Source: Escherichia phage vB_VIPECOTH07. From it: DNA of 44,205 nt. Under the pieces are notes generated by a model that saw only the letters and a program-made list of their open reading frames with translations, had not been told where the DNA came from and ran no database searches. The position numbers and the translations under genes are program-made. The stretch is from the sequence record PQ417132.1; one strand, given 5' to 3'. Below are positions 1,167 to 33,974 of this stretch, piece after piece; position 1 is the stretch's first letter, and each line of letters starts with the position of its first letter.

Positions 1167-1332
1167 AAGAAATTCCTCGTTGTCCACATCGCATTCGGAT
1201 ATTTGTTATCGCGGTCCTGCACCACGGAAATCATGTTCCCGCGTTGCACCAGGCAGAAGTGGCGTTGTTGCTCGCCGTTGTAGCGGCGCCAGATTGCCTC
1301 TTCGATTGCCGCGTTGATGTCACTGAACATTC

Positions 1333-27058: not shown

Positions 27059-27088
27059 ATAAGGCCCTTTCGGGCCTTTATGTTATTA
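27059..27088. terminator. bidirectional hairpin terminator
   Basis: AAGGCCC-tttc-GGGCCTT between convergent gene 26392..27042 (+) and tape measure (-). Confidence 0.55.
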
Positions 27089-29425
27089 CTTAAAGCCAGG
27101 TGCGTTTCTTGTAGCCTTCCTCGCTTTCGATATTTTGCTGTTGCTGTTCTGTAGCGAAGCAGCCACCTGCTCTTCTATGATGATGCGCAAACGGCCTTCG
27201 TCATCCTGCTCGGTAGATACGTTGCCAATCTGACTCGATGTGTTATTTACAATGGTAACATTAGATGGGCCAGAAGAAGACCCATTTTGCCCCATAATTT
27301 CTTTCATCTGCTGCGCAGTTCGTACGCGCGATGCACCAGCAGGCATGATAACTTCTGGTTTACCGCGTTCGGCGATGGTGGAAGCCTGCCCTGCGGATAA
27401 CTGTCCGCCCTGCTCACGAGCGGACCTGATAGCGGAAATCTGCGCCATACCCGCCCCGACGGCAGCGGCAGCGGCTACAGGGGCCAGGAACGGGCCGACT
27501 ACAGGGATAGCCGCCGTTGATTTATACGCCTCAATAGCTGCGGTGTACGTGGCAATAGTGGCCTGTACGATAGCGAATGCCTTATACGCGCCAGAAGCCT
27601 CACCCAACGCAGACCCGATGTTTGAGGCCATGTTGCCAAAGGCCGTTGCCGTTGCGTCGGCGCGCTTCGTAGCATACTGCTCATTGATAGCGTTAAGCGC
27701 CGCCTGATACTGTTTCTCGCTAATCAAACCCTGCTCGCGGTACTTATCCGCTACCGCCAGTTTCTGCTGTTCCTGGATGTCGAGAAGCTCAAGCTCGGTG
27801 GCATTCTGACCCATAATCTGGGCCATGAAGTCTTCACCTTTCTGGTTCTTTTCCTGCCGTTCTTTCTCTCGCTTGGCGAGTTCTTCCTGTCGTGCGGTGT
27901 CAGCTTCCAGCATAATTTGAGTTTTGGCGTTCTCGTATTGCTGGTCGCTAAGAAGCTGGTTGCCGTAAAACTCTTGTAGCTTGGTTAACTGTTGCTCCTG
28001 ATTAGCTTCTATTTTCTGGAATACATCATCATTGAGATGAATAGACTGGTAGTAGAAATCCTCAGCGGCTTTCTTCTGGCGCTCGAACGCATCCGCGGCT
28101 TTCTTAGCGGCTTTTGCCCCCGCGCTATCATCCTCGGACCCGCCACCAGTACCGGTTACCTTAAATTTACTAAGCCCTTCTGCCTTAGCGGCTTCTTTGT
28201 CGATGTCATATGCCGCGCGTTTAAGCGCGACGATATTTTGCTGAGCCTCCACCTGTTCGCGGAAACTTTTACGGGTCAGGTCCGCAACATCACGCTGAGT
28301 ATCCAGTGCCATACCCAGCTGGAAGTTAATGTTTTTTGCTACGTCTACCGATTCACCTGGTGTGAAGGCTGCTTTCACCAACCGGCCAGCATCCTGCGCC
28401 CCTTTAACCATATCTTCAAAGAAACGCTCCATCGCGGTAAATTCTTCCGCGATGAAATCTAGCGCATCGGCGGCTGATTCTGCGATGGTTGTCGCCGTTT
28501 GTTCACCGCTATCGGTGATACTTTTACTGCTAAAATCCCAGAGTTCATTCAGCCCGTTTATCGCGTCGCCTACGAAACCAAATGCCGCGTCGAACGACAT
28601 CTCTATCGCGCTTCCTACTTCCGACGCGATGTCACCCCACATACGCATCTCTGCGGCAAGTTCACCGGATGCAACCTGTGCGTTAAGTTCCTGGATTAAA
28701 TCATCGATGTACCGGATAGGTTCCGCAAGAGCACCAACATCAAGGCTGGTAGCCAGTGTCATTTTTAACTGCGACCAGGAATCGCTGGCACTGGCGATAG
28801 CCCCATTAAGCGTGTTAGCCTGGTCCGCCATAGCCCCAGCGAAGTTTACGTTACCAATGTTGAGCAGGTATTGCTCGATATCGGCAGCGCTCTTCTTAAC
28901 CACCGTAGTAGTGCCCTGGAATGTAAATTCAACATCGTCTTTGTTCTGCTTAGCCTTGATGCCGAATTCTTTAAGGCGCTCAAATTCAAACGTACTGGCG
29001 TCCGCAACGGCCTCAATCATCTGATTTAGGTCTTTACCCATAGCAGCGGCGGTGTTGCCATAGGAGCGCAACGCTTCTTCTGATGGTGTAAGACCAAGCG
29101 CCACAAGTTTACGGAATCCCTCTACTGCCTGTTCAAGACCATACGGAGTGTCGCGCGCGAAGTCTTGCAGGATGCTTAATGCCTGTCTTGCCCCCTGCGT
29201 GCTTCCGGTTAGTGTTTTCAGGCTGGCGGACATCTTATCCAGTTGCCGTTGGGAGTCTACTAGTTCCTGTGCGGCCTTGTACGCGGTAGCAGCGACGATG
29301 GAAGCGAGGCCCGCTACCGCGGCCCCGGCTACCTTTGCGGACTTGGAAAGGTTATCAAGACGGTCTGAGGTAGCTTTCGCGCCTTGCTCTGATACTTTTA
29401 CAACTAAACTAGCTACATCAGCCAT
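27086..29425 (-). CDS. tail tape measure protein
   Basis: 779 aa, Ala/Gln-rich coiled-coil composition, follows tail chaperone genes. Confidence 0.85.
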   Translation of the reverse strand: MADVASLVVKVSEQGAKATSDRLDNLSKSAKVAGAAVAGLASIVAATAYKAAQELVDSQRQLDKMSASLKTLTGSTQGARQALSILQDFARDTPYGLEQAVEGFRKLVALGLTPSEEALRSYGNTAAAMGKDLNQMIEAVADASTFEFERLKEFGIKAKQNKDDVEFTFQGTTTVVKKSAADIEQYLLNIGNVNFAGAMADQANTLNGAIASASDSWSQLKMTLATSLDVGALAEPIRYIDDLIQELNAQVASGELAAEMRMWGDIASEVGSAIEMSFDAAFGFVGDAINGLNELWDFSSKSITDSGEQTATTIAESAADALDFIAEEFTAMERFFEDMVKGAQDAGRLVKAAFTPGESVDVAKNINFQLGMALDTQRDVADLTRKSFREQVEAQQNIVALKRAAYDIDKEAAKAEGLSKFKVTGTGGGSEDDSAGAKAAKKAADAFERQKKAAEDFYYQSIHLNDDVFQKIEANQEQQLTKLQEFYGNQLLSDQQYENAKTQIMLEADTARQEELAKREKERQEKNQKGEDFMAQIMGQNATELELLDIQEQQKLAVADKYREQGLISEKQYQAALNAINEQYATKRADATATAFGNMASNIGSALGEASGAYKAFAIVQATIATYTAAIEAYKSTAAIPVVGPFLAPVAAAAAVGAGMAQISAIRSAREQGGQLSAGQASTIAERGKPEVIMPAGASRVRTAQQMKEIMGQNGSSSGPSNVTIVNNTSSQIGNVSTEQDDEGRLRIIIEEQVAASLQNSNSKISKARKATRNAPGFK

Positions 29426-29777
29426 CGTTTCTGCCCTCGAAAATAGCGTCTAAGCTCATGATGATGTCAGATTCAAACATGTCTATATTCTGGCCCGAAA
29501 CGGTGCTGTATGCCACTAAATCCGACCATCTTAACTGTTCGCGCGGGTACATCTTGATGCCGTCGTCATCCACTCGGCGGGTAAATTTGATTTCCCGGTA
29601 CTTCTCGAAGGTGGTTAATAGCTCAGGGGGGCATTCTGGCCCGGTATCCTGCGTTGCTTCCGGCGCGTCTTGCATAACCCCCATAGCAATTAGCGCGGCT
29701 TTATGTCCGTCGGCAATGCTGTCAAACTCCCGCCGTTTGTGGCGGGTTATGAAGTTCCAACGGGCAAACTGGAGCAA
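29418..29777 (-). CDS. tail assembly chaperone, frameshift-extension ORF (T-like)
   Basis: Open in the -1 frame relative to the upstream G-like gene across its stop; candidate slippery GGAAAAG at 29786..29792. Confidence 0.45.
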   Translation of the reverse strand: MLQFARWNFITRHKRREFDSIADGHKAALIAMGVMQDAPEATQDTGPECPPELLTTFEKYREIKFTRRVDDDGIKMYPREQLRWSDLVAYSTVSGQNIDMFESDIIMSLDAIFEGRNDG

Positions 29778-29782
29778 CGCGT

Positions 29783-30199
29783 CTACTTTTCCTGCAATTG
29801 GTGAAGCTGTTCGTTGTGGAAAACAACAACGTGTTCAGCGAGGCGTTTATATTGTGAGAAAAGAGTGTTCAGGTTCTCTTTATTAAATTCATCGTCGAGA
29901 CTCCAACCGTTAACCAGTTCAAGTGCTAACTGGCGGTTAAGGTCCGTCGCGGCGTCTTCCATCTTAATATTGTATTCCGAGAAATCTTTCAGTTCCTCAC
30001 ATTTATCACGAAGCGGTTTCAATTTACCTAATGCCGCGCGGTACGCAAGTGTAAACGCCCTCATAGCTTTAACGGCAACGTCTGCCTCCGGTGAAACAAC
30101 GTTCAGCCACTCCCCTGAATCGGTGCCGTCTTTCAGTGGTATTGGCATACGGGCGCCTTTTTCTGCCTCAGCTTCGTAATAAAAATCAGAAAGTTTCAT
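29783..30199 (-). CDS. tail assembly chaperone (G-like)
   Basis: 138-aa acidic protein immediately upstream of tape measure; ATG at 30199. Confidence 0.5.
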   Translation of the reverse strand: MKLSDFYYEAEAEKGARMPIPLKDGTDSGEWLNVVSPEADVAVKAMRAFTLAYRAALGKLKPLRDKCEELKDFSEYNIKMEDAATDLNRQLALELVNGWSLDDEFNKENLNTLFSQYKRLAEHVVVFHNEQLHQLQEK

Positions 30200-30306
30200 T
30201 CTTTAATCCTTTGGTTAAGAGGTTACTGGTTAAGGTTAATGCGCCAGACGGGAACCACCCGCTTTTCGTGTGCGACACTAGGCGCAAAATAATTCTAACA
30301 CATTAC

Positions 30307-30335
30307 TTGCACACCCCAACATAATAGGATACTAT
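30307..30335 (+). promoter_or_regulatory. promoter TTGCAC-N17-TACTAT with dyad AATAG-N4-CTATT
   Basis: ACTTGCACACCCCAACATAATAGGATACTATTCACTTA; near-identical to the minus-strand copies at 5415 and 6911; SD AGGAG then ATG 30377. Confidence 0.6.
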
Positions 30336-30348
30336 TCACTTACACCAA
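30321..30348 (-). promoter_or_regulatory. candidate divergent promoter for tail chaperone operon (TTGGTG-N16-TATTAT)
   Basis: Reverse strand of the same element reads GTGTAAGTGAATAGTATCCTATTATGTT, resembling the 10371 and 13360 promoters; lies upstream of gene 30199 on minus strand. Confidence 0.35.
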
Positions 30349-30376
30349 CAATGTTAACTCAAACAGGAGCTACCCC

Positions 30377-30568
30377 ATGACAGGTATTACTATGTTCTTC
30401 TTAATCATTATCGTTTTAGTTTATTTTATCCCATTTCTCGTGGCGCATATGCGCAACCATAAAGCTAAATTAGCGATATTCATGGCTAATCTGTTTCTCG
30501 GTTGGGTTCTGCTGCCGTGGGTATTTATTTTAATCTGGGCGTGCAACTCGAATGTCAAAGAGAAGTGA
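30377..30568 (+). CDS. small two-TM membrane protein, superinfection-immunity (Imm)-like
   Basis: IPFLVAHMRNHKAKLAIFMANLFLGWVLLPWVFILIWAC matches the Imm-like consensus pattern from memory; two hydrophobic helices. Confidence 0.45.
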   Translation: MTGITMFFLIIIVLVYFIPFLVAHMRNHKAKLAIFMANLFLGWVLLPWVFILIWACNSNVKEK

Positions 30569-30606
30569 GCTAGTATAGGACAAATCCTAAACACGAGGAA
30601 GTAAGC

Positions 30607-31737
30607 ATGGCCCAGAAGAAAATAACCGACGAACAGTTACAGGAAGAATTGAACGCCGGGATGAAGAATGTAGACATCGCCCGTAAATACGGCATCTCAG
30701 ACCGAGTTATTCGTATCCGTAAAGCGAAGCTGGCTAAGAAAGGTGTAGGCCACGGGCGTGACGTTAGCCACCTTGTACCAGATGGCTACAAGATTAAAGG
30801 CACATCGTCGCTGGTTGATGAGTTCGGCAACACTAAGTTGCAATGGGTTAAGACCGACACCGATGCCGAACGTCAGGTCGAGTTGATGAAAGCCATAATC
30901 GAGGGCATGAAGTCGGAGATTACCCCCGTTGCTCCTGTTAAAGCCGTTCGCGCCAAACGGGACGACAAGCTACTCAACCTTTACACTGTGTCTGATTTCC
31001 ATCTCGGTATGCTGGCCTGGGCCGACGAGAGTGGCGACGACTGGGATATGAAGATTGCAGAAGACCTGTTCTCCCGTTGGTTCGATGCGGCATTCCAGAA
31101 AGCACCGGATGCGGGGACTGGGGTTATTAACCTGCTGGGCGACTTCGCGCACTTCGATAGTCTGGTTGCCGTTACACCTGCAAGCGGTCACGCCCTTGAC
31201 GCCGACACCCGTTACCAGAAACTTGTCCGCTACATGATTCGCATGGTCCGCCGTGTTGTCGATATGGCGCTGGTTAAGCATAAAAATGTTCGCTTGCTTA
31301 TCGTGCAAGGGAATCACGACGAAAGTGGCATGATTTGGTTGGCTGAGATGTTCAGTACGCTGTATGACAATGAGCCGCGTGTGTTCGTCGATACGTCACC
31401 GGATGTTTACAAGATGGTGCAACACGGCAAAACGACGCTGTTCTTCCATCACGGGCATAAAGCACGATTCGACGCTATTGAACCTGTTATGATTGCCAAG
31501 TTCCGTAAAGCGTTCGGCGAGAGTGTTTACAGCTACGCCCACGTAGGCCATCTGCACCACCAGAAGATTGTAGAAAGCCGTAACATGATTGTTGAGCAAC
31601 ACCGCACCTTAGCGGCTAAAGACGCCTACGCCTCCCGCGGAGGTTGGATGTCGGGCCGTAGTGCAAATGTAATTACTTATAGCGCCGAATTTGGCGAGGT
31701 CGCACGTTTAACTATTTCACCGGAGATGCTGGGATGA
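30607..31737 (+). CDS. HTH-fused calcineurin-like metallophosphoesterase (SbcD/Mre11-like motifs)
   Basis: N-terminal HTH KNVDIARKYGISDRVIRIRK; phosphoesterase motifs VSDFHLG, LGDFAHFD, QGNHDE, FFHHGH, VGHLHH. Confidence 0.75.
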   Translation: MAQKKITDEQLQEELNAGMKNVDIARKYGISDRVIRIRKAKLAKKGVGHGRDVSHLVPDGYKIKGTSSLVDEFGNTKLQWVKTDTDAERQVELMKAIIEGMKSEITPVAPVKAVRAKRDDKLLNLYTVSDFHLGMLAWADESGDDWDMKIAEDLFSRWFDAAFQKAPDAGTGVINLLGDFAHFDSLVAVTPASGHALDADTRYQKLVRYMIRMVRRVVDMALVKHKNVRLLIVQGNHDESGMIWLAEMFSTLYDNEPRVFVDTSPDVYKMVQHGKTTLFFHHGHKARFDAIEPVMIAKFRKAFGESVYSYAHVGHLHHQKIVESRNMIVEQHRTLAAKDAYASRGGWMSGRSANVITYSAEFGEVARLTISPEMLG

Positions 31738-32219
31738 AAGATATTGTAATTTTCGATTTAGACGGGACATTGGCGGATGGGACACATCGTTTGCACCTGC
31801 TGCCGAAAGATAACTACAACGAAACATGGGCGTGGAAGCCCTTTAACATGGCGTGCAAAGATGATGAACCAATTAGAGATAACATAGAACTGTGTAACGC
31901 CCTCAATCGTCGCTATGCCGTTATCATTTTAACGGGCCGTAGTGATGATGCAGAAAAAGAAACCAGAATGTGGTTGCAGCGCCACCGCGTCGAATTTTAT
32001 CAGCTAATCATGCGCAGCAAACACGACAACAGAAAAGACATCGTAATTAAAGAAGAGGTGTTGCGTGCTATTGGGCTGGAAAGAATCTTGTGTGCATTCG
32101 ACGACTCGCCAGCGGTAATAAAGCATTTCCGCGAACTCGGCATAACCACTCACGCGGTTACTGAATACGACTGTAACGGGAACTCTACACACTTAAAACC
32201 ACATGGGAGCGATAAATAA
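31734..32219 (+). CDS. HAD-superfamily phosphatase (polynucleotide 3'-phosphatase-like)
   Basis: Motif I IVIFDLDGTLADG; remaining pattern (ILTGRSDDAEKE...NRKDIVIKEEV...AFDDSPAVI) resembles the phosphatase domain of phage polynucleotide kinase-phosphatase as recalled. Confidence 0.65.
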   Translation: MKDIVIFDLDGTLADGTHRLHLLPKDNYNETWAWKPFNMACKDDEPIRDNIELCNALNRRYAVIILTGRSDDAEKETRMWLQRHRVEFYQLIMRSKHDNRKDIVIKEEVLRAIGLERILCAFDDSPAVIKHFRELGITTHAVTEYDCNGNSTHLKPHGSDK

Positions 32220-32773
32220 TGGCTAAGGTAATTATTCTTAATGGCCCTGCGGGTTGCGGGAAAGACACGCTTGCTATGGCACTGGTAGAAATGGGCTTTG
32301 CGAAAGGAACTACCAGTTTCAAGAATCCGATGTTCAATATCGCTATGGCTGCGTTAGGCCCGGATGCTTACCACGAGTTTCTCGACGGCTACGACGACCG
32401 GGCCAGGAAAGAAAAGCCAGAAGGTTTCCTTAATGGGTTGTCGCGCCGTCGGTTCATGATTGCTATCTCTGAACAATTCATTAAACCGGCCCTCGGCAGC
32501 GATTATTTCGGTAAATATCTCGCTGAAAACTTGCCTGACGGCGACGAAGTTTTTGTAGTGTCCGACGGTGGATTCGCCAGTGAAGTGGTCCCTATCGTCG
32601 CCGCTGGGCATGACGTAAGAATTGTTCGCTTGCACAGAGACGGCTATACGTTTGAAGGGGACAGCCGTGGCTATCTGTATGGCGTTGATGGTGTAAAAGA
32701 TTACGACACCTACATCATACCAGGTGACGTTAAATCGAACGTTATAGACATTGCTTTAAAATTAGGTTTGTAG
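32219..32773 (+). CDS. P-loop kinase (dNMP kinase-like or polynucleotide kinase-like)
   Basis: Walker A GPAGCGKDT; GKD variant and downstream pattern recall phage dNMP kinases. Confidence 0.6.
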   Translation: MAKVIILNGPAGCGKDTLAMALVEMGFAKGTTSFKNPMFNIAMAALGPDAYHEFLDGYDDRARKEKPEGFLNGLSRRRFMIAISEQFIKPALGSDYFGKYLAENLPDGDEVFVVSDGGFASEVVPIVAAGHDVRIVRLHRDGYTFEGDSRGYLYGVDGVKDYDTYIIPGDVKSNVIDIALKLGL

Positions 32774-32775
32774 GG

Positions 32776-32804
32776 AAAAGGCCCCTTTCGGGGCCTTAGT
32801 TTTA
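32776..32804. terminator. bidirectional rho-independent terminator
   Basis: AAGGCCCC-tttc-GGGGCCTT then TTTTA; terminates the plus-strand cassette and, on minus strand, the major tail gene whose stop overlaps the T-run. Confidence 0.7.
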
Positions 32805-33974
32805 CGCGTAACTAATACGTTGAATTACGATAGACGACTGGTACTGATTGCCTGTGGACTGTCCTTCTATGCGCTGAGTGATTGACTCAGGGCCACCAAT
32901 CTCAGGTGTGACCGCCGTAAGCTCTGCGCGTTTAAAACTGAAAGACATAGCCCCGTTTACCCCCGCCAGAATGGAGTTAATCTCTACCTGCTGCTCGTTG
33001 ATAAACTTCTGAATCATCGCCATGTCATACAGCTTACCGGAGATGGAGAAGGTGTTAGCTGCACGGCTACGCTCCACAAACGCTACGTTAGTGTTACCAA
33101 GTTCGAACTGCGCGGACGCGCTGTTATCGTTGGTGATAGTCAGACTGTCGCAACGCAACGGCGTAGAGCCGTCGAACACGGAAACGTCAACCGAAGAGAA
33201 CGGCTCATCACCAAAAGTAACAGATGAGAAGTTGGAACCGGTCGGCGGCGTAGTGAGAATCTCCTGACTGCGACCGATGAATGGGAAGCTGCCAGTTACC
33301 ATCGCGTTAACAGCCTGTTCGATGGTAAAACCAGAAACTTCCACGCCTTTGGTTAACGTGTACGCGTCAGTACCGCCGCACTGGCCTTTGTACCAGGTAA
33401 GGATAGAGAACGTCTTACACGCGTTACCGGTTTCCAACGTGTCGCCAGTTTTAGCCTTACTAGTTTTTGTCTCGGTGGTCAGGGTGTGTTGGATGCCCGC
33501 ACCAGTAACAACCGTAGCCGTTACTGCAGTAACAATAAATGGTTTTGCGTTATCGCCTGTTAAATCGGTAAACGCAATCAGGTCGCCTACCCCAACTCCG
33601 TCAGTGATAAAACTGCCGGTAGCGCGTGTGAACGTCTTGCCCGCGGGTGCGACGGTAATCGATAGTCCTGACAGGGAAACGCCGGATTGCCACGTAGAGC
33701 CTAAAGCGCCCGCTAACCAGTCGTCCTGGCTTTTCGAGCTAAGCTCGATGGCGTATTCTCCACTAACCTGTTTGTTACCGGTGCGGATGGATGTAGTTTC
33801 ACGGCTGCCGTCCAGTTCGTTGGATGTCAGCGTGTCACGGGTAATCGCGGGAACGCCACCCGTGTTACGCAACGGCGACCATACCGGGTTAGTCGGTGTT
33901 ACGCCGGGGGTAGTTTCCGCCACATAGAATTGCGCGGTATTCGCGCCCTTAAAAGGAGTTGTAGCCATATTCAC
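32802..33974 (-). CDS. major tail protein (putative)
   Basis: 390-aa Thr/Ser/Gly-rich protein downstream of head-tail joining genes and followed by a terminator. Confidence 0.55.
   Translation of the reverse strand: MNMATTPFKGANTAQFYVAETTPGVTPTNPVWSPLRNTGGVPAITRDTLTSNELDGSRETTSIRTGNKQVSGEYAIELSSKSQDDWLAGALGSTWQSGVSLSGLSITVAPAGKTFTRATGSFITDGVGVGDLIAFTDLTGDNAKPFIVTAVTATVVTGAGIQHTLTTETKTSKAKTGDTLETGNACKTFSILTWYKGQCGGTDAYTLTKGVEVSGFTIEQAVNAMVTGSFPFIGRSQEILTTPPTGSNFSSVTFGDEPFSSVDVSVFDGSTPLRCDSLTITNDNSASAQFELGNTNVAFVERSRAANTFSISGKLYDMAMIQKFINEQQVEINSILAGVNGAMSFSFKRAELTAVTPEIGGPESITQRIEGQSTGNQYQSSIVIQRISYA

Follow-up and report, generated by a model that had tools for sequence, protein, structure and literature searches.

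The window, which is the whole 44,205-nt stretch of Escherichia phage vB_VIPECOTH07 DNA that was analysed (PQ417132.1), contains two overlapping reading frames, here called G and T, directly upstream of the gene for the tape measure protein. All three lie on the minus strand; T follows G, and the last 8 nt of T are shared with the start of the tape measure gene. The features of the locus are the following.

29783..30199, minus strand: G, the tail assembly chaperone gene, 138 aa, 15.9 kDa (open reading frame and translation)
TTG 29777 to TGA 29420..29418, minus strand: the downstream open reading frame T as annotated, in the -1 frame relative to G
29775..29777, minus strand: the TTG annotated as the start of T in GenBank records of this clade
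29418..29789, minus strand: the T segment in the -1 frame, from AAA 29789..29787 to TGA 29420..29418
29783..29834, minus strand: the stretch of G with an open -1 frame, where a productive shift could happen
29786..29792, minus strand: the candidate shift heptamer G GAA AAG, with the core tetramer A AAG at 29789..29786
29783..29785, minus strand: the G stop codon TAG directly 3' of the shift codon, a candidate 'shifty stop' helper
29775..29780, minus strand: the hexamer GCG TTG (in the family GCG YTG), 5 nt past the 3' end of the heptamer
join(30199..29786, 29786..29418), minus strand: the predicted G-T fusion, 260 aa, 29.9 kDa, junction ...LQEK-VDALLQF...
27086..29425, minus strand: the tape measure protein gene, 779 aa (open reading frame)

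The tape measure protein takes its name from the annotation of the homologous gene in the near-identical phage XY1, in Golestan and in other records; its score against Pfam TMP_3 is 35.8, i.e. below the cut-off of 41. Further upstream of the G/T pair there is a tail tube-like gene (33974..32802), with a 2.4-kb opposite-strand block in between.

According to the profile matches, both parts belong to tail assembly chaperone families. G matches the Pfam family Phage_TAC_4 (PF08748) with 34.6 bits (cut-off 21.1), and T matches Phage_TAC_18 (PF23812) with 68.8 bits (cut-off 27). G also matches phrog_15027 and phrog_313 ('tail assembly chaperone'), and the 259 positions of phrog_15027 span both parts, with G at 1-138 and T at 143-259. 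Neither a sequence search against solved structures nor NCBIfam gave a significant match. A homologue of T was found by tblastn in 493 phage records, and among bacterial and archaeal genomes in a single contig, probably a contaminating phage. A database search with the predicted 260-aa fusion returned five distant G-like proteins and no fused entries.

The G protein is the product of normal, zero-frame translation, and on the mRNA strand its gene ends with CAA TTG CAG GAA AAG TAG. In the -1 frame the last upstream stop codon is a TGA at 29837..29835, and the frame is then open through the last 17 codons of G and the G stop codon, on to 29418. The initial annotation proposed a -1 programmed frameshift here, with the downstream frame open across the G stop codon, and its coordinates hold, the -1 frame being open from 29834. 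It placed the slip at G GAA AAG (29792..29786). The position and the re-pairing of tRNA-Lys from AAG to AAA, which is perfect, stand, but the re-pairing in the P site is only near-cognate, as the shift of tRNA-Glu from GAA to GGA relies on a G.U pair in the middle of the codon. Its comparison with the lambda site GGGAAAG is right for the A AAG half, and one relative (L095) has G GGA AAG, but the first -1-frame triplet here is G-G-A, and of the canonical X XXY YYZ pattern only the YYZ half, A AAG, is present. The near-cognate P site was not mentioned in the initial annotation, nor were the conserved adjacent stop codon and the missing downstream RNA structure described below.

Of the tetramers in E. 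coli, A_AAG is the one most prone to shifting, by a wide margin (Sharma et al. 2014, PMC4066793). Sites of the type NNA_AAG, e.g. CGA_AAG, are used in IS1222 and in B. subtilis cdd, and P-site codons of the G_GA type are known in established heptamers (Atkins et al. 2016, PMC5009743). GGAAAAG is present in eight copies in the window, compared with 5.6 +/- 2.3 in shuffled sequences, which is not significant, so that the motif alone is no evidence. In the annotated coding sequences of XY1 there are 43 in-frame A_AAG and five in-frame G_GAA_AAG, and in that genome only one A_AAG is immediately followed by a stop codon, namely the one at the end of G. Of the Lys codons in the long open reading frames of the window only 41% are AAG, and the site has AAG in every relative. 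What rises above chance is the context and conservation of the site, not the heptamer itself.

The conservation was examined in 80 related IMG/VR loci and seven GenBank loci. From the 80 loci, 33 representatives with at most 90% identity to each other were selected, with T proteins down to 43% identical. The related loci are not independent samples, and the counts that follow overstate the number of evolutionary events. T is in the -1 frame relative to G in all loci (80/80 and 7/7), and A AAG is found at the end of G in 80/80 IMG/VR loci. This bears out the G/G-T arrangement claimed in the initial annotation, and the comparison of the overlap in related phages that it had proposed as a check shows that the frame, the A AAG and the final wobble A are all kept.

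Among the 33 representatives A-A-A-G-T is invariant, with adjacent wobble positions at 0.07-0.44 bits. The penultimate codon of G is GAA, GCA, TCA or AAA, and in L095, which is outside the representative set, it is GGA; it encodes five different amino acids, always with the final A. The codon preceding GAA takes seven forms (CAG, TCG, CTG, AAG, GCG, ATG and TTG). The seven preceding codons and the five penultimate codons are separate events despite the kinship of the loci. The first base of the heptamer is G in 76% of the representatives and in all 23 of those with GAA. Canonical heptamers occur at the equivalent position in three loci, the lambda-type G GGA AAG in L095 and the dnaX-type A AAA AAG in L070 and L072.

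The residues K-V-x-A-L-Y/L/F-x-F-A of the -1 frame are conserved directly after the site and upstream of any start codon, and K-V-x-A-L, immediately past the shift, is invariant in the relatives. The amino acids encoded by the -1 frame before A AAG show no conservation. In some relatives the open -1-frame overlap is only 19 nt long (the last five sense codons of G and the stop codon), which leaves A AAG as the sole shared site and excludes other sites. The same evidence makes it very improbable that the ribosome changes frame at another point of this phage's 52-nt overlap, such as the T TTC in GTT GTT TTC (around 29823..29820). T_TTC (U_UU.C) ranks second among E. coli tetramers in its proneness to shift (PMC4066793) and falls inside the open -1 stretch of this window, but it is not conserved, as in Golestan GTG TTT is followed by a -1-frame stop codon. 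For many relatives, whose open overlap is only 19-31 nt, its position is excluded, and a shift there would translate upstream -1-frame residues of the kind that show no conservation.

Even less probable is a change of frame by RNA polymerase slippage on the run of A rather than by the ribosome. Homopolymer runs known to cause productive transcriptional slippage are far longer than three or four A (reviewed in PMC5009743). The site does contain a run of A, but it is four A long here and shrinks to three where relatives have GCA AAG or TCA AAG, and the invariant final G of AAG and the invariant stop codon fit a ribosomal event.

XY1 and five of the seven related records inspected give T a gene and a start codon of its own; separate annotations are found in XY1, Golestan, Jersey, Bas74 and Serratia phage Eta. 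According to these records G and T would be separate proteins without any fusion, T being translated from its own TTG (29777), possibly by re-initiation after the TAG located 6 nt upstream. TTG is a legal start codon, and in this clade it lies four codons past the shift and an AGGA precedes it by 12 nt, inside CAGGAAAAG, an arrangement that could allow a separate T in this clade. The announcement of Shashou, a 96.6%-identical phage, also states that there is 'no canonical slippery sequence' (PMC6776780). However, 28 of 32 representatives have CTG in place of the TTG, which is confined to the XY1/Jersey clade, and at the annotated start position just four of the 33 representatives have a start codon (absent in 29/33). 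Elsewhere the first ATG, GTG or TTG of the T frame is located 11-109 codons downstream (median about 32), within conserved sequence and past invariant residues. Even in the clade of this phage the residues before the TTG (K-V-x-A) are still conserved, and Serratia phage Eta has neither GGA nor AGGA upstream. With a separate T, moreover, neither the AAG codon nor the invariance of the wobble A would be explained. We consider this reading unlikely; the TTG at 29777 is most likely an internal Leu codon, and the start codon of the separately annotated T is, from the alignments, probably spurious.

The fusion is instead annotated in two relatives from the subfamily Guernseyvirinae, K1H (ADA82316.1) and Shemara (QEA10354.1 / YP_010582519.1). 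Both have homologous G and T (T is 55% identical to that of K1H and 42% to that of Shemara), the same site G GAA AAG followed by TAA or TAG, and the junction ...EK-VKALY.... Our predicted fusions for these two phages matched the deposited joined coding sequences by exact-sequence look-up; those joins were annotated by inference. Together with the missing start codons, these records favour the fusion over a separate start at TTG, as the initial annotation did. K1H and Shemara differ from the present phage in that their T is without any start codon; in the clade of this phage a TTG has arisen in T, which is why annotators call it a separate gene. The site is unannotated in most database records of this phage group. 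A literature search on Kagunavirus, Guernseyvirinae, Jerseyvirus and K1H in combination with frameshift found no experimental study of the fusion.

To look for stimulatory RNA elements we folded the relatives with RNAalifold. With 31 sequences from the heptamer to +95, the consensus is a 3-bp stem of -0.68 kcal/mol with no covariation, and the windows -60..+60, -4..+120 and +3..+70 equally show no conserved structure. Sequence by sequence, the folds of the 50 nt downstream do not exceed those of control windows in stability (median percentile 0.62). The MFE fold of the window's own sequence reaches -33 kcal/mol (z = -2.1), resting on a hairpin at 29746..29729; as a conserved stimulator this hairpin was rejected, being clade-specific and 39 nt from the site. 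There is no conserved Shine-Dalgarno-like element upstream in the aligned relatives. In these secondary-structure folds no conserved stimulatory RNA structure was found. In reporter assays A_AAG without a stimulator barely exceeded background (Sharma et al. 2014, PMC4066793), so with no conserved stimulator the slip rate may be low, depending on the presumed effect of the stop codon.

The conserved neighbour of the site is the stop codon, which adjoins A AAG in 64 of 65 distinct junctions. Among the 33 representatives it is TAG in 24, TAA in eight and never TGA, and one has TTA and then TAG. The genome-wide usage in XY1 is 35 TAA, 34 TGA and seven TAG. Further downstream, the hexamer GCG YTG shows no synonymous variation among 32 representatives (GCG in 32/32, followed by CTG in 28 and TTG in four); at the other invariant residues of T the wobble base varies freely. 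RNA folding of the relatives found no pairing partner for the hexamer, and it may be a linear 3' context element. Read-through of the zero-frame stop codon as the cause of the conserved GCGYTG was rejected by eye: past the G stop codon the zero frame is no more conserved than the T frame imposes, and it ends after 11 codons here.

The reading that we favour, with a probability of roughly 85%, is that ribosomes make a programmed -1 frameshift when they reach the final sense codon of G, yielding the G-T fusion. Most ribosomes would read GAA AAG and terminate at the TAG, producing the 138-aa G. A minority would slip back one base on A AAG, with tRNA-Lys moving from AAG to AAA; tRNA-Glu could follow from GAA to GGA through G:C, G.U and A:U pairs, and the slip may thus involve one tRNA or two. 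The slipped ribosomes would continue with GUA GAC GCG UUG and complete the 260-aa G-T. The conserved helper is most likely the UAG or UAA directly after the site, not an RNA hairpin or a pseudoknot. Slow termination would leave the A site empty, giving the peptidyl-tRNA-Lys time to slip ('shifty stop').

If the pair works as lambda gpG/gpGT does (Levin, Hendrix & Casjens 1993; Xu, Hendrix & Duda 2004, 2013, 2014; summarised in PMC5009743), the shared G part may bind the tape measure protein encoded just downstream, which is the expected partner of both G and G-T, the T part may recruit the tail tube protein, and the slip frequency would set the ratio of G to G-T. In lambda, as here, the frames overlap just upstream of the tape measure gene and the second is in the -1 frame; it is startless in lambda and in most relatives of this phage. 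The slip predicted here is, as in lambda, one of tRNA-Lys on ...A AAG, and the expected low-level fusion consists of the whole chaperone and the T domain. The present locus differs from lambda in that the site is G GAA AAG with the last sense codon as the shift codon and the stop directly adjacent, in that the Pfam families are others (Phage_TAC_4 and Phage_TAC_18), and in that the tail tube gene is non-adjacent, beyond the opposite-strand block. Judged on sequence, the site is in all likelihood an ordinary G/G-T frameshift of the lambda kind at a non-textbook slippery site, and it leaves the general picture of tail assembly unchanged.

The site differs from the canonical type of X_XXY_YYZ with an RNA structure (dnaX, IS3, retroviral): it lacks the canonical heptamer, and the alignments and folds show neither a conserved stem-loop 5-9 nt downstream nor a Shine-Dalgarno-like element 10-14 nt upstream. 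It resembles the A_AAG sites of IS1222 (G_CGA_AAG) and B. subtilis cdd (A_CGA_AAG). In IS1222 and cdd a single tRNA-Lys slip on A_AAG is essential and the P-site re-pairing is imperfect or absent; the GCA AAG and TCA AAG of the relatives are exactly of that type. These two systems have an upstream Shine-Dalgarno-like element and/or a downstream structure, whereas here the conserved neighbour is the stop codon. In the siphophage KL1 of Burkholderia, whose capsid and one tail protein resemble those of K1H (PMC3483164), a GGGAAAC site is predicted for gp18/gp19 directly before the short product's stop codon, as here (Lynch et al. 2012, PMC3483164). KL1 has a different, canonical heptamer and a TGA stop codon, and its chaperone pair is separated from the tape measure gene by an extra tail gene; the likeness is one of layout.

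A more specific proposal, which we put forward tentatively, is that release factor competes with tRNA-Lys slippage at a minimal A AAG UAR and that the outcome, rather than an RNA structure, determines the ratio of G to G-T, with the UAG or UAA, the following A/C and the GCG YUG acting as a compact linear stimulator. If this were true, the stoichiometry of tail assembly would be coupled to the termination capacity of the host. Located 5 nt downstream, the GCG YUG hexamer would sit at the mRNA entry channel.

For annotation, one joining rule would serve the whole group: the frame changes at the last Lys codon, where ...A AAG is followed by TAR, and the product is a G-T of roughly 260 aa. The locus would also represent a well-conserved natural minimal A_AAG site, free of RNA structure and followed by an adjacent stop codon and an invariant 3' hexamer, and offer a convenient E. 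coli system for the tuning of low-level -1 frameshifting by the stop codon and the linear 3' context.

The upstream chaperone ORF (G) has 138 codons and runs on the minus strand from an ATG at 30199 to a TAG at 29785..29783, its 3' end reading ...CAA TTG CAG GAA AAG TAG. The initial annotation had proposed a -1 frameshift that joins this ORF to the next. A sequence check finds its heptamer, G GAA AAG, at 29792..29786 as placed there, and a reading-frame check agrees that the downstream ORF is in the -1 frame relative to G and open across the G stop. Because the last upstream stop of the -1 frame is at 29837..29835, this frame is open over the final 17 codons of G and its stop. In a mechanical listing the second ORF (T) extends from TTG 29777 to TGA 29420..29418, 119 aa, and its end overlaps by 8 nt with the tape measure gene (779 codons, start 29425). 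G matches Pfam Phage_TAC_4 with 34.6 bits (cut-off 21.1), and the second ORF matches Phage_TAC_18 with 68.8 bits (cut-off 27). A single PHROG profile, phrog_15027 ('tail assembly chaperone', 259 positions), covers the first ORF (1-138) and the second (143-259), so fused versions of the pair already exist in phage annotations. The computed products are G with 138 aa, 15.9 kDa, and a predicted G-T fusion with 260 aa, 29.9 kDa.

Over its 1.1 kb, the region matches Escherichia phage vB_EcoS_XY1 (Kagunavirus, Guernseyvirinae) with 100% identity, and 296 near matches come from Escherichia and Salmonella phages. Two separate genes are annotated in XY1, Golestan, Jersey, Bas74 and Serratia phage Eta, while a joined CDS is given for K1H (ORF19A/19B) and for Shemara (as 'tail assembly chaperone frameshift product'), i.e. 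the group is annotated inconsistently. For a slip at the final Lys codon of G, the predicted fusions were constructed and searched for by exact sequence. The predicted fusion ...SEK|VKALY... is identical to ADA82316.1 (K1H) and ...MEK|VKALY... to QEA10354.1 (Shemara). Fusions shifted one codon earlier, as well as the XY1 and Jersey fusions, gave no exact match in the protein collection. The identical junction is thus already deposited for two relatives and is unannotated in this phage.

To compare the overlap in relatives, the T-frame proteins of seven diverged phages were aligned, and the alignment was used to fetch 80 IMG/VR loci (T identity 43 to 100%, 65 distinct junctions). These were reduced to 33 representatives with at most 90% identity over 300 nt, loci of shared ancestry whose counts are not independent events. 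All 80 loci have T in the -1 frame, with an in-frame AAG at the same position. The stop follows AAG immediately in 64 of the 65 distinct junctions. The sole exception, locus L068 (IMGVR_UViG_2162886012_000023, 1198..1297), reads GCA AAG TTA TAG; it retains A AAG and the downstream GCG CTG, displaced one codon relative to the stop, and offers a natural test of what the stop codon contributes.

Among the representatives all five positions of A-A-A-G-T are invariant and the following A is 97% conserved, while the wobble positions of the preceding G codons hold only 0.07-0.44 bits. The penultimate codon is GAA in 23, GCA in 8, TCA in one and AAA in one, with GGA in the related locus L095. It ends in A throughout, though five different amino acids are encoded, and a constraint at the protein level can therefore not explain the pattern. 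The Lys codon at the site is AAG every time, against 41% of the Lys codons in the long ORFs of the window, where GCA makes up only 20% of the Ala codons. The first base of the heptamer is G at 23/23 GAA sites, despite a preceding codon that can be CAG, TCG, CTG, AAG, GCG, ATG or TTG; before GCA it is C, A or G. This pattern is what would be expected if the G matters only for the re-pairing of tRNA-Glu from GAA to GGA (G:C, G.U, A:U). In three relatives a textbook heptamer stands at this position: G GGA AAG, as in lambda, in L095 and A AAA AAG (dnaX type) in L070 and L072. The stretch of G that is open in the -1 frame varies from 19 to 208 nt across relatives and its -1 translation is not conserved, which indicates that T coding begins at A AAG and that there is no other shared shift site.

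Independent initiation of T is the alternative to a fusion. Directly after the shifted Lys, the T frame has a conserved motif, V-x-A-L-(Y/L/F)-x-(F/Y)-A-x-W, and the TTG used as T start in XY1 is the Leu of its V-x-A-L part. At this position 28/32 representatives have CTG, and TTG is confined to the XY1/Jersey clade. In 29/33 representatives the first ATG, GTG or TTG of the T frame is 11-109 codons downstream (median near 32), past invariant T residues such as F23, D24, I26, G29 and H30, so that an independent full-length T is impossible in most of the family. Initiation at the TTG, with AGGA 12 nt upstream, may be an additional route in the clade of this phage only.

The motif alone is no more frequent than chance, and the case for the frameshift rests on the comparison: GGAAAAG has 8 copies in the window versus 5.6 +/- 2.3 in shuffles. 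Within the 76 annotated CDSs of XY1, A_AAG occurs in frame 43 times and G_GAA_AAG 5 times; A_AAG directly before the stop is found in the chaperone gene only.

Two elements downstream of the site were considered:
29780..29775, minus strand: hexamer GCG TTG (family consensus GCG YTG), located 5 nt downstream of the heptamer
29746..29729, minus strand: CCCGCC-ACAAAC-GGCGGG, a GC-rich hairpin in the T coding region, 39 nt 3' of the shift site

Folding, which covered nested secondary structure, revealed no conserved RNA element. From 31 sequences RNAalifold predicts a stem of 3 bp (-0.68 kcal/mol) without covariation, with the same outcome in other windows around the site. The 50 nt that follow the site are no more stably folded than control windows of the same loci (median percentile 0.62). 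The fold of this phage's own sequence at the site (-33 kcal/mol, z = -2.1) depends on the hairpin, which was rejected as a conserved stimulator, being confined to the XY1-like clade and weakened in Jersey-like phages. No upstream Shine-Dalgarno-like block is conserved among the related loci compared. The hexamer has no synonymous variation apart from its Y (GCG 32/32; CTG 28, TTG 4), unlike other invariant T residues, where the wobble base varies freely. RNA folding of related loci gave no pairing partner for it. Its position in a ribosome whose P site contains GAA would be about +12..+17, close to the mRNA entry channel.

The stop codon next to the site (29783..29785 in the window) is conserved: 24 representatives use TAG, 8 use TAA and none uses TGA; genome-wide, XY1 uses TAA 35, TGA 34 (about 45%) and TAG 7 times (about 9%). 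The base after the stop is A in 21, C in 10, T in 2 and never G, i.e. A or C in 31/33.

Of all tetramers, A_AA.G is by far the most prone to shifting in E. coli, although without a stimulator it barely exceeds background (Sharma et al., PMC4066793). Known NNA_AAG sites include CGA_AAG in IS1222 and B. subtilis cdd; how efficient such sites are varies with the two 5' bases, and accepted heptamers include 'G_GA' P-site codons (Atkins et al., PMC5009743). In the proposed mechanism the essential event would be the -1 re-pairing of tRNA-Lys from AAG to AAA. We infer that peptidyl-tRNA-Lys slips while the UAG or UAA stop waits for release factor, with tRNA-Glu following near-cognately where the codon is GAA; GUA (Val) would be read next. 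By analogy with lambda (PMC5009743), G would bind the tape measure protein, G-T would recruit the tube protein through its T part, and the slip rate would set the ratio of G to G-T.

By its defining sequence-level features the locus belongs to the G/G-T class of tail-chaperone frameshifts, with a predicted fusion; one of these features, the lack of a separate T start, is seen in 29/33 representatives but is qualified in this clade, which has acquired a candidate start codon for T. It does not belong with the signals that combine a canonical heptamer and a downstream RNA structure: the heptamer is non-canonical, and nested folding gave no conserved structure. Burkholderia phage KL1 (PMC3483164) is similar in its predicted slip on the last codons with the stop adjacent; its predicted site is GGGAAAC followed by TGA. 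The main value is a corrected annotation, together with a clean example from nature of an A_AAG-stop signal that has no conserved structure.

The tail tube-like gene (32802..33974, minus) is separated from the chaperone genes by an opposite-strand block (30377..32773, plus) with genes for superinfection immunity, a DNA repair exonuclease, a polynucleotide kinase and a dNMP-kinase-like protein. What precedes the chaperone and tape measure genes is thus a 177-nt intergenic region (30200..30376) and not the tube gene. Compared with window 30607..32773, the block of XY1 (NC_073325.1, 9462..12418) additionally has a calcineurin-like phosphoesterase gene and a small ORF. The 100% identity is limited to the 1.1-kb query, and given the different block the window is a related but different Kagunavirus genome; the gene content of its block is closer to Golestan. 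A Jersey-like chaperone locus with T 86% identical was also found in a Bacteroidota isolate assembly (Taishania pollutisoli CZZ-1, NZ_JACVEL010000023.1, 13-kb contig); this contig is most likely phage contamination, not a prophage.
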